From: Candidatus Calditenuaceae archaeon HR02
GTDB taxonomy: Archaea > Thermoproteota > Nitrososphaeria_A > Caldarchaeales > Calditenuaceae
DNA length: 64,000 nucleotides
Reading direction: 5' to 3'
Assembly (NCBI GenBank): GCA_002898395.1
Contig: BEHE01000004.1
Coordinates: forward strand, 32,001-96,000
The translations under genes and the position numbers were made by a program. The notes under the pieces were generated by a model that was not told where the DNA came from, did not search any database, and was given only the letters and a program-made list of their open reading frames with translations. Position 1 is the first letter of the stretch; every line of letters begins with the position of its first letter. This document shows, in pieces, positions 39,768 through 59,376 of the stretch.

Positions 39768-39853
39768 GCCGGGGTGGCAGAGTGGATAATGCGCAGGCCT
39801 TGAGAGCCTGTGGCCCATTTCGGGCCGCGAGGGTTCGAATCCCTCCCCCGGCG
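39768..39853 (+). tRNA. tRNA-Ser(TGA)
   Basis: Identical to 18007-18092 except the wobble base (CT-TGA-GA). Confidence 0.96.
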
Positions 39854-40023
39854 TTACTGTTAAATCATTAATAATAAGCATGAAGGGAGGGGGTGAGTTT
39901 TCGTCTGCGCTTCATCATATTTCTGCCGATGCTTTTCTTCAGAATCTCACAAATCTTCCACCAGTCCTTCATTTCTCCTATCTCATCCCTGTGATGCCGT
40001 ATCGTCTGTGTTGAGAGTTCGAT
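39854..40023 (-). mobile_element. Decayed LAGLIDADG element, copy 3 (3'-terminal portion only; 3' of tRNA-Ser TGA)
   Basis: First 37 bp identical to 18093-18129; the rest is the reverse complement of a sequence closely similar to 59113-59255. Confidence 0.8.
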
Positions 40024-40118
40024 ACCCCCGACGCTAGTAGTGGTGCGTATGGTAGGGGGTTTAAATACTGCTCAAAACACCAACAACACATAAACACAGA
40101 ACAGATTATGATGTCCTA

Positions 40119-40163
40119 GATGCAACACAAAACAAAGAAACAAGTCAAAAAGATAGGAGGCTG
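40119..40163 (+). repeat. 45-bp repeat matching 18727-18771 (inverted)
   Basis: 38/45 identity by manual alignment. Confidence 0.7.
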
Positions 40164-40493
40164 GGGATAATCCATTCAGTTCACGGGCGTAGGCATGGCC
40201 CTCCTAAGTATCTGATCTGATATGTTCATAGTTACTGAGTTGGGTGTAGTTGTGACTAATACGATGTTTTCCAGGCCGAGGGGTATTATTTGGCGTCTAC
40301 TCAGTAATGAGAAGATGGGGGAGATACCGCTGCTCAAGAGGTTTAAGCAAACCTAACCCCGTCATGATCGGTTAAACATTTATAGGATCGACTATGTGTA
40401 ATAGCCAGACTCATGACAACACTTATTACATCCATTATAGACCGTTTTTAGCCTGTTCCACATTCTCTAAAAGCTGGCGTCCAGCCCAAGTAT

Positions 40494-42818
40494 CTATCTT
40501 CTGAGCCGAGAAGACTTTAGTGCGGCTATCGCCGCCTGCCCTAGCGCTATTCCGCCATCCCCAGCCGGTACCTCTCTCGGCAAAAGAATGTCGAGCCCTT
40601 TATCCCCGAGAGCCTCCCTAAGACCCTGGTATATGTATTCGTTTACAGCAGCTCCGCCTGATAGGGCTACAAACCTTCGCCCCTCTATAAAGTGGCTAGC
40701 CACAAGTCCGAGACCATATCCTACGGCGTGCTGCACCATGTAGCCTATCTCCCGCCTATCAGCCCCGCCCCTTAAGAGGTCGAGTGCCTGTAGGAGTATC
40801 TCGGCTGTATCTACCGTGTATATCCCCCTGTCTTTGACATGTACCTTAAGCCTCTCTGTGGTTGGCTTTGAGTTGTCCTCGAGCACGATCGCTGGTTCAC
40901 CCTCGTAGGTCCGGCGGCTGCAGAAGCCCAGCATTACAGATGAGGCGTCTAACACTCTGCCAGTGCTCGAAGTGAGTGGTAGGTCGCCTTCGAGTTGGTT
41001 TAACAGGATGTGAAACTCCTCCCATCCTCTCCTAAATCCCCTCTCGACAATTTTCATCTCGCGAAAGACCTCTGAAATCTCTTCTCTAGACAGCTTGTCA
41101 GAGAGTATTCCAGCCAACATTCTTGCAGGATATTCTACCGCTAGGTCTCCTCCCGGCATTTTCTGGGGTTTGAGGCATCCCACCCTCTTGAATCCGTTCA
41201 GACTAGCTAGAAGAACCTCTCCACCCCAGGCTGACCCATCGGACCCAAGCCCAACACCATCAACCGCAATTCCCACCACCTCTTCTTCACAGATACCGTG
41301 CTCCGCCATGACGGCTGCTATGTGAGCCCAGTGGTGCTGAATCTTAAGAAGCTCGGCACCATACTTTCTAGACCATTCTTCGGCGAGAAGCGTGGAGGGG
41401 TAGAGAGGGTGTAAGTCGGCCACCATGACTGAGGACCCAAGAGGTATCTGGTACGTTTTTATTAGTAGTCCCAAATATTTCTCCAAGTCTAGGAAGGACC
41501 CATATTCATCTACGTCACCTATAAACTGTGTCAGGACAATCTTATCATCAAATGCCACTGCGCCCGCGCTCTGCAGCATAGCACCAAACGCAACAACCTT
41601 CCTCGAAGTGTGGAATGGGAGCTGGATCCACCTGGGCGCGTACCCCCTGCCCCTCCTTAGGAGTGTCAACCTATCTGCCGTGAAGCGGGCCACGCTGTCA
41701 TCAACTCGATTCACAATCACTCTATTGTGTGTGAGGAAATAGTCGACTATTCCGCGCAGCCTGTCAAAGGAATCTTCATCGCTAGTGCACATAGGCTCGT
41801 TGTGAGGGTTACCACTCGTCATTATTGCGTATTTATCCCGTATCCAAGATAGGAGAAGGTAGTGTAGGCCGGTGTAGGGGAGGAATACACCTAGCTTCCT
41901 CAGGTTGGGTGCGACGAGGCGGGATATGGGCGCGTCATCAAGCATAGGCAAAAGCAATATAGGCTTCTCAGGTGAGTCAAGTATTCTCACCGCCTCAGGT
42001 CTAAGCTCTACGAGACGCGACACGGTATATATGTCCAAGCACATGACGGCGAAGGGCTTGGTAGGCCTTCTCTTCCTAGACCGAAGCTCAGCCAGAACGT
42101 CGTCATCAGTAGCCAAGGCCGCAATATGATAACCGCCCAACCCCTTTACTGCCACAATATGCCGAGAGTCAATCAGTCTTGCAGCCTCTTCAATAGCACG
42201 TACACCGTCGGCTAAGACTTCACCCCCACTGCTAAGGAGACGGACACTGGGACCACAGACTGGGCAGCTGATCCCCTGAGCATGAAACCTTCTCTCATCC
42301 TCGGGGTTAGAGTATTCTCTGAGACAGCTCTGGCATAAGGGGAAGTCCCTCATCGATGTGTTTTCCCTGTCATATGGAACGCTGTATATCATGGAGTAGC
42401 GCGGTCCACAGAATGCGCAAGAGTTGAACGGGTATAGGTGCCACCTCGTCTCTGATAGTATTTCATATAGACAGTCCCTACATATTGAGAAGTCCGGTGG
42501 AATAATTGATCTGAAGTGAGCTGAGGGGTCGCTTTGCTCGATCTTAAAGTCTGGGTAACCCTTAGGGGTAGTCTGTGTTATCGAGTACTCGTCTATTCGC
42601 GCCTTCTCTGGCTTCAACTCCCACAGCAGTTTGATAAACTCCTCAACCCTCCCAGGTTCCCCTTCTACATGAATCTCGACACCGCTCCCGCCCACGTTCT
42701 TAACGTAGCCGGTTACACCTGCCAGCCTAGCAACTCTAAAAACAAATGGTCTGAAGGCGACGCCCTGCACAATTCCTGAGAGCCTCAGCCTCACAGCCTT
42801 CAAGAGATCCACCGACAA
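40494..42818 (-). CDS. hypF: [NiFe]-hydrogenase maturation carbamoyltransferase
   Basis: Acylphosphatase GIVQGVAFRPFV, zinc fingers CRDC/CAFCGPRY/CQSC/CPVCGP, KGLGGYH, QHHWAH, GDGGIALGQ. Confidence 0.96.
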   Translation of the reverse strand: MSVDLLKAVRLRLSGIVQGVAFRPFVFRVARLAGVTGYVKNVGGSGVEIHVEGEPGRVEEFIKLLWELKPEKARIDEYSITQTTPKGYPDFKIEQSDPSAHFRSIIPPDFSICRDCLYEILSETRWHLYPFNSCAFCGPRYSMIYSVPYDRENTSMRDFPLCQSCLREYSNPEDERRFHAQGISCPVCGPSVRLLSSGGEVLADGVRAIEEAARLIDSRHIVAVKGLGGYHIAALATDDDVLAELRSRKRRPTKPFAVMCLDIYTVSRLVELRPEAVRILDSPEKPILLLPMLDDAPISRLVAPNLRKLGVFLPYTGLHYLLLSWIRDKYAIMTSGNPHNEPMCTSDEDSFDRLRGIVDYFLTHNRVIVNRVDDSVARFTADRLTLLRRGRGYAPRWIQLPFHTSRKVVAFGAMLQSAGAVAFDDKIVLTQFIGDVDEYGSFLDLEKYLGLLIKTYQIPLGSSVMVADLHPLYPSTLLAEEWSRKYGAELLKIQHHWAHIAAVMAEHGICEEEVVGIAVDGVGLGSDGSAWGGEVLLASLNGFKRVGCLKPQKMPGGDLAVEYPARMLAGILSDKLSREEISEVFREMKIVERGFRRGWEEFHILLNQLEGDLPLTSSTGRVLDASSVMLGFCSRRTYEGEPAIVLEDNSKPTTERLKVHVKDRGIYTVDTAEILLQALDLLRGGADRREIGYMVQHAVGYGLGLVASHFIEGRRFVALSGGAAVNEYIYQGLREALGDKGLDILLPREVPAGDGGIALGQAAIAALKSSRLRR

Positions 42819-58018: not shown

Positions 58019-58027
58019 AGAGACACC

Positions 58028-58486
58028 TCAAGCAAGAAACTCGGTGGGCACTTTCTTGATAGCGTTGACGAACGCGGAGGAGGCCGCCGCATTAGAGAGA
58101 AGCTTGGCGACATTACCCTTAACCTTCAGCTGCCCCGTCATTACCGCCACTGTGGGGCTGAGCCTACCTAGTGCCACTTTTTTCATGACATCATAGGAGC
58201 CCATTATCACTATGGGAGCCTCCTTCTCATCCGCCTTCGACAATATCTCAAAACCGCGACACTTCCCGTGATAGAGGTCAAGCCAAACGGCTACCTGCTC
58301 CGTCTTAAAATGCTCTTTAACCGGTGGCGGCAGGCTAGTTATCGCAAGGATAATAGGATCCTCCCAACCCCGGGCAGCCGACTCATACTCTTTATCACTG
58401 TTCAGAATGTCAACAAACGCCTGAACCCACTCCCTAGAACCGAAAATATAACGGCCACTCACATGGTTAGAGAAAGGTTGATCCAA
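58028..58486 (-). CDS. SCP2 (sterol/lipid carrier) domain protein
   Basis: FGSREW..LN..Y..AA.GW, LDLYHGKC, AVMTGQLKVKGN. Confidence 0.85.
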   Translation of the reverse strand: MDQPFSNHVSGRYIFGSREWVQAFVDILNSDKEYESAARGWEDPIILAITSLPPPVKEHFKTEQVAVWLDLYHGKCRGFEILSKADEKEAPIVIMGSYDVMKKVALGRLSPTVAVMTGQLKVKGNVAKLLSNAAASSAFVNAIKKVPTEFLA

Positions 58487-58599
58487 ATATAAGCTTTAAC
58501 TCTAAAACTGATATTCTACCCCATAACAAGCTGTGCAACATAGAGGAGTTCAGCATCGCAGCCTACAGCAAATGACCGTCTTCTTCAAGGGCATACGCA

Positions 58600-59301
58600 A
58601 TGCTTCACAAACTACAATTTCACTTAAGCAATTCAGACCTTATGTTGCGTGTCAGGGATCGAGAGTTTGCGGAGGCATTTGCTGAGGCTCTAAGGAGGAT
58701 AGGGTTAAGACCATCGATAATATTCAGGGACGGCCGTTACATAGTGAACGCAACATCAACCGAGCTATATTATCTACTAGATAGTGGCGAGTGGCGGAAA
58801 TACATGGACTCCGACCCCGAGGCTAGACTGGGATTCCTCGGGGGCTTCTTGGACGGTGACGGAATAGGGTTGATGCCAGCCTACGCGAACACCAATGTCG
58901 AATTACTTGAATATATCAGACAGCTATTTGCAGAGCTTGGAATAAGGGCGAGTCCGCTGATGCTAATGTCTAAGAAGGGTAGCAAACGATGAGATTCGAG
59001 GAGGCAAATATGGATAGAAAGGACGTTTATGTAATGTAGATCCGCCCCGAGGATTACCAGAGGTTCCTCGACTACGTGGGAATATCTATAACTAGGAATA
59101 ATGAGGTATCTCATCGATTTCTCCATAAAGGTGATGTGGCGTTATATGGGGTGAGGTAGGAGAAATGAAGGTGTGGTGGGAGATTTGTGAGATTTTGAAG
59201 AAAAGTATCGGCAGTAATATGATGAAGCGCAGACGAAAACCCGCCCCCTCCCCCCTTATCCCCTCATACCTACCACATTGAAAAATCCATAGTTTTTAAA
59301 T
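58600..59301 (+). pseudogene. Decayed LAGLIDADG endonuclease element, copy 4 (longest; 3' of tRNA-Lys)
   Basis: ORF 58600-58992 LRVRDREFAEAF..FLGGFLDGDG..ANTNVELLEYIRQLFAELGI; continues past stop/frameshift as KDVYVM*IRPEDYQRFLDYVGISITR; no first LAGLIDADG helix seen. Confidence 0.85.
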
Positions 59302-59376
59302 CGGGCCCGGCGGGATTTGAACCCGCGACCTCCGGGTTAAAAGCCCGTCGCTCTTTCCTGCCTGAGCTACGGGCCC
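59302..59376 (-). tRNA. tRNA-Lys(TTT)
   Basis: GGGCCCG/CGGGCCC acceptor stem, GCTC/GAGC D stem, ACGGG-CTTTTAA-CCCGG, GCGGG-TTCAAAT-CCCGC. Confidence 0.95.

Follow-up and report, generated by a model that had tools for sequence, protein, structure and literature searches.

Homing endonuclease genes (HEGs) are usually housed in an intron or intein, as with I-DmoI, which is encoded within an rRNA intron. Free-standing HEGs are, to our knowledge, known mainly from phages and organelles. SegB of phage T4 is a free-standing GIY-YIG homing endonuclease encoded in the T4 tRNA gene cluster, and the T-psi-C stem-loop is the conserved core of its site (PMC2330249). For Candidatus Caldiarchaeum subterraneum, Sugahara et al. 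(2012; PMC3293823) described a repeated 'a+b' insertion at tRNA-Thr loci, and they read its open reading frame (ORF) as a putative pNOB8-plasmid-derived, tRNA-Thr-specific DNA recombinase. Here we describe four elements from a 64,000-nt stretch (the window) of contig BEHE01000004.1, positions 32,001 to 96,000, of Candidatus Calditenuaceae archaeon HR02, a hot-spring organism (assembly GCA_002898395.1). Four tRNA genes of the window form two convergent pairs, tRNA-Ser(GGA)/tRNA-Gly (locus 1) and tRNA-Ser(TGA)/tRNA-Lys (locus 2), and a homologous element lies at the 3' end of each. These elements are very probably decayed copies of HEGs that stand free behind tRNA 3' ends, with the 19 kb enclosed by locus 2 being conserved chromosome. 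Unlike most homing elements, the copies are intergenic and outside any intron or intein.

The sequence-only reading, made from the letters of the window alone, had taken the elements for endonuclease genes, and Pfam matches to LAGLIDADG_3 on the window copies as well as on near-full relatives confirmed this. ORF 58600-58992 in copy 4 (motif FLDGDG) reaches the curated cut-off of this family, and ORF 18107-18409 in copy 1 (motif FFDGDG) gives a weaker match under the cut-off (E values in Table 1). Motif 2 is left in copies 1 and 4 alone, and motif 1 is gone from all four. Copy 1 retains the middle and C-terminal parts, with its tail abutting tRNA-Ser(GGA); its identity to the other copies nowhere exceeds 75%, which makes it the most divergent of the set. 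Copy 4 is truncated at its 5' side, has lost the helix-turn-helix region together with motif 1, and carries a frameshift after 58992. All four frames run on the opposite strand toward the tRNA and end 10-19 nt from it, and a shared, conserved leader of 40-90 nt begins directly past the discriminator base. As two convergent tRNA genes each have their own tail-to-tail copy, the imperfect inverted repeats that had been noticed within each locus are explained; in locus 2 (39885-39989 and 59148-59252) the complementarity amounts to 90% across 105 nt, and in locus 1 the match is weaker, about 72% across 85 nt. A transposon or miniature inverted-repeat transposable element was considered and rejected, as the inverted repeats lie between separate opposite-facing copies and the far-side ends differ among copies.

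Besides the motifs, the predicted fold points to a homing endonuclease. In an alignment of 16-17 family members the motif-1 aspartate (D81) is invariant, and the acidic residue of motif 2 is E in 'FFDSEG' and D in the 'FFDGDG' of subfamily A, to which the window copies belong. An N-terminal helical head of about 65 residues precedes the two LAGLIDADG domains. AlphaFold2 modelling was performed for the C2 frame, a relative in the same genome, rather than for a window copy, and gave a model with a pLDDT of 91 in which the alpha-beta-beta-alpha-beta-beta-alpha fold is present twice per chain. The best Foldseek matches of this model in the PDB were I-DmoI chains (E = 6e-10, target TM-score 0.76); a sequence-only search of the PDB was weak, with PI-PfuI as best match (E = 0.011). 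Judged from motifs and model, the elements encode remnants of a monomeric, two-domain I-DmoI-like LAGLIDADG homing endonuclease, for which cleavage is predicted. I-DmoI and other archaeal single-chain LAGLIDADG enzymes (PDB 2vs8, 1b24) likewise have two LAGLIDADG domains per chain and acidic residues at both motifs. In contrast to I-DmoI, the genes of this family are free-standing, without intron or intein, and placed behind tRNA genes, and their products carry the extra helical head.

tRNA genes are classic integration sites, and the elements might on that account be scars of integrase-driven, tRNA-targeting plasmids or viruses of the SSV or pNOB8 type. The unit repeated beside tRNA-Thr in the same archaeal order, with its ORF of 813 bp (PMC3293823), would also fit. 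However, according to the ORF lists neither the four copies nor their surroundings contain an integrase-like ORF, and within the element intervals the only ORFs of at least 60 aa are LAGLIDADG remnants and frames antisense to the tRNAs, so that the earlier statement that no intact integrase or transposase is present still holds. Furthermore, no att-type direct repeat of the tRNA 3' part was found at the far side, and a single family stands behind many tRNA identities, which is not expected of a site-specific att system. We consider integrative scars extremely improbable and retain decayed HEGs as the explanation of the elements. The coordinates of all features are collected in Table 1.

Table 1. 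Features at and around the two convergent tRNA loci (positions in the window).
Feature	Position	Strand	Details and source
tRNA-Ser(GGA)	18007-18092	+	just 3' of cbf5; ARAGORN; Infernal 61.1 bits
tRNA-Gly(GCC), 19-nt non-canonical intron	19082-19174	-	untyped by ARAGORN; Infernal 50.8 bits; anticodon by eye
tRNA-Ser(TGA)	39767-39854	+	beside ppcA; ARAGORN, Infernal
tRNA-Lys(UUU)	59301-59377	-	beside hisS; ARAGORN, Infernal
HEG copy 1, subfamily A, decayed	18093-18572	-	tblastn (C4:50102-50572); Pfam LAGLIDADG_3 E = 0.022; stub tree
HEG copy 2, subfamily A	18782-19081	+	C-terminal stub of ~95 codons plus leader; abuts tRNA-Gly
HEG copy 3, subfamily A	39855-40023	-	leader plus C-terminal stub of ~46 codons; at tRNA-Ser(TGA)
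HEG copy 4, subfamily A	58600-59300	+	Pfam LAGLIDADG_3 E = 7.4e-5; tblastn; ORF list; abuts tRNA-Lys
'M' repeat, ~135 bp	40021-40157	+	TTTAAATA box pointing away from stub; blastn
'M' repeat fragment	18727-18771	-	5' side of copy 2; blastn
Filler DNA	40227-40443	+	217 nt, 99% identical to C14 30832-31048
'Cargo' block	40494-58486	.	hypFDCE, beta-oxidation, ETF, ThDP enzyme, alcohol dehydrogenase, SCP2; Pfam

The elements are not restricted to the window. With four LAGLIDADG frames as tblastn queries, 33 LAGLIDADG loci were found in the genome (1.73 Mb on 36 contigs, 93.65% complete), and 25 of them end between -50 and +300 nt from a convergent tRNA 3' end. Random placement, repeated 2000 times, put 0.14 loci on average, and at most 3, at such ends. 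Among the remaining eight, two are next to tRNAs that ARAGORN had missed or that a contig end truncates, one adjoins the 5' half of a tRNA, and two border a degenerate remnant resembling a tRNA 3' part. tRNA counts refer to 44 of 47 ARAGORN predictions (Infernal finds 41); two predictions with introns of 974 and 574 nt and an 'Asn(att)' overlapping a tRNA-Gly on contig C28 were dropped. In a test independent of any annotation, the 200-nt downstream flanks of 32 of the 44 tRNA genes matched, in the same orientation, the downstream flank of another tRNA gene (median number of partners, 16), compared to 2/44 for upstream flanks. The two loci of the window thus look congruent because 4 of the 32 occupied flanks happen to fall in two convergent tRNA pairs. 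Repeats of the element belong to a multi-copy family with matches on 19 of the 36 contigs, part of which come from a second, unrelated repeat of 135 bp. Three HEG subfamilies, A, B and C, are present in the genome. Subfamily A comprises 23 stubs including the window copies, its best copy (on C25) having one in-frame TGA; subfamily B is often located at contig ends, and two frames of subfamily C, on C29 and C28, are uninterrupted. Uninterrupted members of the family include the 302-codon frame at G000:C29:494-1399 and the gene at G006:C16:7418-8260. At high identity subfamily A was detected in this genome only, the closest outside copy being 47% identical.

The sequence-only reading took the two convergent-tRNA loci for cassette-like sites and the 19 kb in locus 2 for an accessory module brought in by endonuclease-triggered or homologous recombination. 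Pfam confirmed the gene content given for this interval, namely hypF, hypD, hypC, hypE, acyl-CoA synthetase, acyl-CoA dehydrogenase, enoyl-CoA hydratase, thiolase, a ChsH2-like OB protein, 3-hydroxyacyl-CoA dehydrogenase, electron transfer flavoprotein (ETF) alpha and beta, a saccharopine-dehydrogenase-like protein, a thiamine diphosphate (ThDP) enzyme, alcohol dehydrogenase and SCP2, with ppcA and hisS outside the block and cbf5 beside locus 1. Its status as cargo was not supported. In the congener G002, ppcA, tRNA-Ser(TGA), hypF to SCP2, tRNA-Lys and hisS are collinear with the window at 84% identity over 18 kb, and the element is missing from the flanks of all four tRNAs: only 64 nt separate tRNA-Ser(TGA) from the hypF stop, and the tRNA-Ser(GGA)/tRNA-Gly locus beside cbf5 has a spacer of 115 nt. 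The block is also collinear in G007 and partly so in G003 and G024. hypF adjoins tRNA-Ser(TGA) in G003 (46 nt apart) and G005 (62 nt), and the distance from tRNA-Ser(TGA) to SCP2 is similar in G005 (17.6 kb) and here (18.6 kb). Neither composition nor divergence sets the block apart, with a G+C of 0.50-0.54 against 0.49-0.56 in the flanks and 84% identity to G002 against 88% for ppcA, 85% for cbf5 and 83% for hisS. The synteny comparison, proposed together with the cassette idea, therefore showed the block at the same place in congeners regardless of the elements, which is the outcome that had been named as refuting it. As the elements lie behind most tRNAs, they are also no mark of these two loci. 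The 19-kb block is thus conserved chromosome and not imported cargo.

What does vary among congeners are the tRNA flanks themselves, as the earlier reading had anticipated, and this variation is what speaks for cassette-like exchange. Between tRNA-Ser(GGA) and tRNA-Gly, G005 carries a 6.1-kb operon (G005:C20:11700-18300) for a molybdopterin oxidoreductase, a 4Fe-4S subunit and a cytochrome b; this oxidoreductase was not found in G000, G001, G002 and G007 at E <= 1e-20 and is located on a different contig in G006. G003 is without part of the beta-oxidation genes, and the genes beside tRNA-Lys differ among congeners. A gene for a 179-aa membrane protein lies between SCP2 and tRNA-Lys in G002, G005, G006 and G007 and was not found anywhere in the present assembly with its above-mentioned completeness. 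In G007 (G007:C8:238169-264935) the block from tRNA-Gly to tRNA-Ser(TGA), which corresponds to about 21.7 kb here (window 19082-39854), is inverted, with breakpoints at the 3' flanks of tRNA-Ser(GGA)/tRNA-Gly and of tRNA-Ser(TGA), and the two tRNA-Ser genes are convergent and 780 nt apart. Set against the conservation of the block, these changes leave the entry of a 19-kb module at a cassette site improbable in our opinion. The reading as decayed HEG copies accommodates filled and empty alleles at one site: the flanks are empty in G002, and other subfamilies occupy them elsewhere, with an uninterrupted subfamily-B gene at the tRNA-Gly flank in G006 and a subfamily-B stub at the tRNA-Lys flank in G005, indicating that the same tRNAs were hit independently. 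Window copies 2 and 3 show an inverted match of 101 nt at 90% identity, and the G007 inversion is the product that would be expected from recombination between inverted copies like these. No HEG remnant was detected in the G007 inter-tRNA spacer by tblastn (E <= 1e-4) or by eye, and the inversion can therefore not be attributed to elements in G007. Of the words sampled, a fraction of 0.47 occurred in the public DNA run X1 and almost none in two runs from its study. Contigs built from the reads over 39600-59500 were short (depth about 5), and a single one showed an opposite-strand joint from 39964 to 58961 with 90% likeness, which most likely comes from another family copy, as both sides lie within element copies.

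The likeness of the two loci to each other was also analysed. All four tRNA genes, and hence the convergent pairs at both loci, were confirmed by ARAGORN together with Infernal, and the assignment of the second tRNA of locus 1 to Gly was corroborated by eye: the anticodon loop reads CUGCCAC once 19 nt are removed from the gene. The right ends (18794-19079 and 59017-59300) share 94% identity over 286 nt, in agreement with the earlier description. The left ends (18007-18132 and 39768-39893) are indeed 98% identical over 126 nt, but this match mostly reflects two nearly identical tRNA-Ser isoacceptor genes and the short leader behind them, since 86 of the 126 nt are tRNA, about 40 nt are leader, and past the shared leader identity drops to 72-75%. 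The two window tRNA-Ser genes differ solely in the anticodon; the pair in G002 also differs in the D-loop. One variable-arm base is common to both copies in each genome, A here and G in G002, which suggests gene conversion between the two tRNA-Ser loci. A tree of the 23 subfamily-A stubs placed the Gly and Lys copies (2 and 4) as sisters with 98% identity over 150 nt (next-best 86%), the Ser(TGA) stub in a cluster with two composites of stub and M repeat located elsewhere, and the Ser(GGA) copy far from all other stubs.

The copies are truncated at different points and their far-side ends vary. At the left junction of locus 2 the stub is followed by the M repeat and then by 217 nt of filler, resulting in a patchwork. 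The composite of stub and M repeat, of which copy 3 is part, is also found at C1:88816-89118, C29:11135-11429 and C9:26987-27253. The filler matches the end of an unrelated gene of 239 codons on contig C14, from its final codons into the spacer behind it, and looks like DNA captured during repair. Together, truncations, filler and the missing neighbour gene would be the marks of irregular break repair. The M repeat combines a hairpin and a TTTAAATA box with an A/C-rich stretch that runs for about 100 nt and terminates in GATAGGAGG. It has 34 blastn matches genome-wide, located either at the 5' side of truncated subfamily-A copies, always facing away, or upstream of unrelated genes. Rfam gave no match for the repeat and reported only the tRNA at the left junction. 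The M repeat may act as a mobile promoter or leader, or may encode a small RNA.

Several side observations were made in the window. Four purine-rich 31-nt look-alikes (13889-13919, 17640-17670, 28990-29020 and 56270-56300; 67-81% identity) resemble the G-rich part of the tRNA-flank leader. cbf5 is divided into two overlapping frames, 16947-17258 and 17197-18003. An mRNA intron is known for crenarchaeal cbf5, and the split could reflect such an intron or a frameshift. The G+C of 62001-64000 rises up to 0.60, compared to about 0.51 in the rest of the window.

The family was detected in 28 of 41 related genomes, with 0-55 matches per genome. Of the best loci per genome (n = 20), eight are adjacent to a convergent tRNA, four directly follow a tRNA that runs the same way, two lie upstream of a tRNA, and one has a convergent tRNA 785 nt off. 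A further 80 loci from named metagenome-assembled genomes (MAGs) of Candidatus Calditenuis, Caldarchaeum, Wolframiiraptor, Geocrenenecus, Nitrososphaerales, Bathyarchaeota and one Thermococcus included 47 with a convergent tRNA within 400 nt and four that left no room for one; relatives of this kind were found by querying genome contigs with an alignment, a single-protein scan having yielded none. In several relatives, no stop codon closes the HEG frame ahead of the tRNA, and the frame continues through the antisense strand of the tRNA gene (with tails such as ...GFEPAT...), so that the C-rich leader is formally a proline-rich coding tail. The presence of family members in many genomes might also be understood if the conserved 3' flank were a host feature, such as a terminator, a processing signal or a domesticated tRNA-linked factor, instead of selfish DNA; the leader opens with a T-rich run at the tRNA end and persists at four to five tRNAs without any coding remnant. 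The same tRNAs are nevertheless without leader in congeners, most copies are truncated or carry stops, and the number of matches falls to zero in some genomes, all of which makes a host function very unlikely.

From what can be observed directly, that is the identity, position and genome-wide spread of the elements, their presence or absence among congeners and the conservation of the block, we infer the following course of cleavage, target choice and repair for the HEG family. An active member would cut tRNA genes in or close to their conserved 3' part, and repair would copy a tRNA-linked HEG from elsewhere in the genome, with the near side fixed by the tRNA end and the far side joined irregularly. 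The HEG would decay once uncut targets run out, and dispersed inverted copies could later serve as substrates for inversion. The placement of the elements and their spread favour a nuclease directed at some feature that tRNA genes have in common. A T-psi-C-type target would let one enzyme address many tRNA genes, and T4 SegB may serve as a precedent by analogy (PMC2330249). Tentatively, and with slightly less than even confidence, we suggest that a LAGLIDADG HEG family uses the near-universal tRNA 3' end as a landing pad and so colonises most tRNA genes (32/44 flanks), its scars reshaping the chromosome by inversions, loss of neighbour genes, capture of filler and turnover of accessory operons.

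Several points weigh against the HEG interpretation. Donor choice guided by likeness of the tRNA 3' ends would place related copies behind similar ends. Related copies were not clearly found behind similar tRNA ends, the test being non-significant: for 17 copies, copy likeness and likeness of the tRNA 3' ends gave a Spearman r of -0.02 (p = 0.55) without gaps and of 0.19 (p = 0.11) with local alignment. Ancestral spacers beside the insertions were not recognisable, as local alignment scores stayed within the shuffled range (24 against a shuffle maximum of 44 for locus 1, 27 against 32 for the left side of locus 2), and simple insertion and replacement can therefore not be distinguished; intergenic DNA at a genic identity of 84% may be too diverged to align. 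None of the 23 subfamily-A stubs in the assembly has an uninterrupted full frame, which leaves recent activity of this subfamily unproven, and the modelled C2 frame (294 codons, no stop) has no canonical start before its N-terminal domain. Finally, 5 of the 20 best relative loci and 25 of the 80 loci from named MAGs are without a tRNA nearby, and another four of the latter are in other orientations.

A comparison with the two described systems shows how far each resembles the family. T4 SegB shares the location of a free-standing HEG among tRNA genes; it differs in its GIY-YIG instead of LAGLIDADG fold, in being a single phage copy as opposed to dozens in a cellular chromosome, and in lacking a fixed place beside tRNA 3' ends (PMC2330249); for the archaeal family the target is a prediction. 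The 'a+b' unit comes from the archaeal order of the named relatives, has an 813-bp ORF (271 codons) compared to about 280 codons in the family, and occurs in 6-7 copies beside tRNA genes, tied to tRNA gene disruption (PMC3293823). The words 'LAGLIDADG' and 'homing' each occur 0 times in that text. The 'a+b' unit of Sugahara et al. (2012) may be the same HEG family, unrecognised. In full-text literature searches, no paper came up that describes LAGLIDADG genes located at the 3' ends of archaeal tRNA genes, and the tRNA-flank family of homing endonucleases, which is real and unusual, is apparently undescribed as such.

For the original finding, the consequence is that the hyp and beta-oxidation genes should not be regarded as forming a mobile island. 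tRNA-targeted retroelements exist in yeast and Dictyostelium, and a HEG family behind three quarters of the tRNA genes would, if the interpretation is true, be their prokaryotic counterpart. It would also provide a concrete agent for two puzzles of long standing, the frequent splitting and disruption of archaeal tRNA genes and the observation that tRNA genes mark sites of rearrangement and gene turnover.

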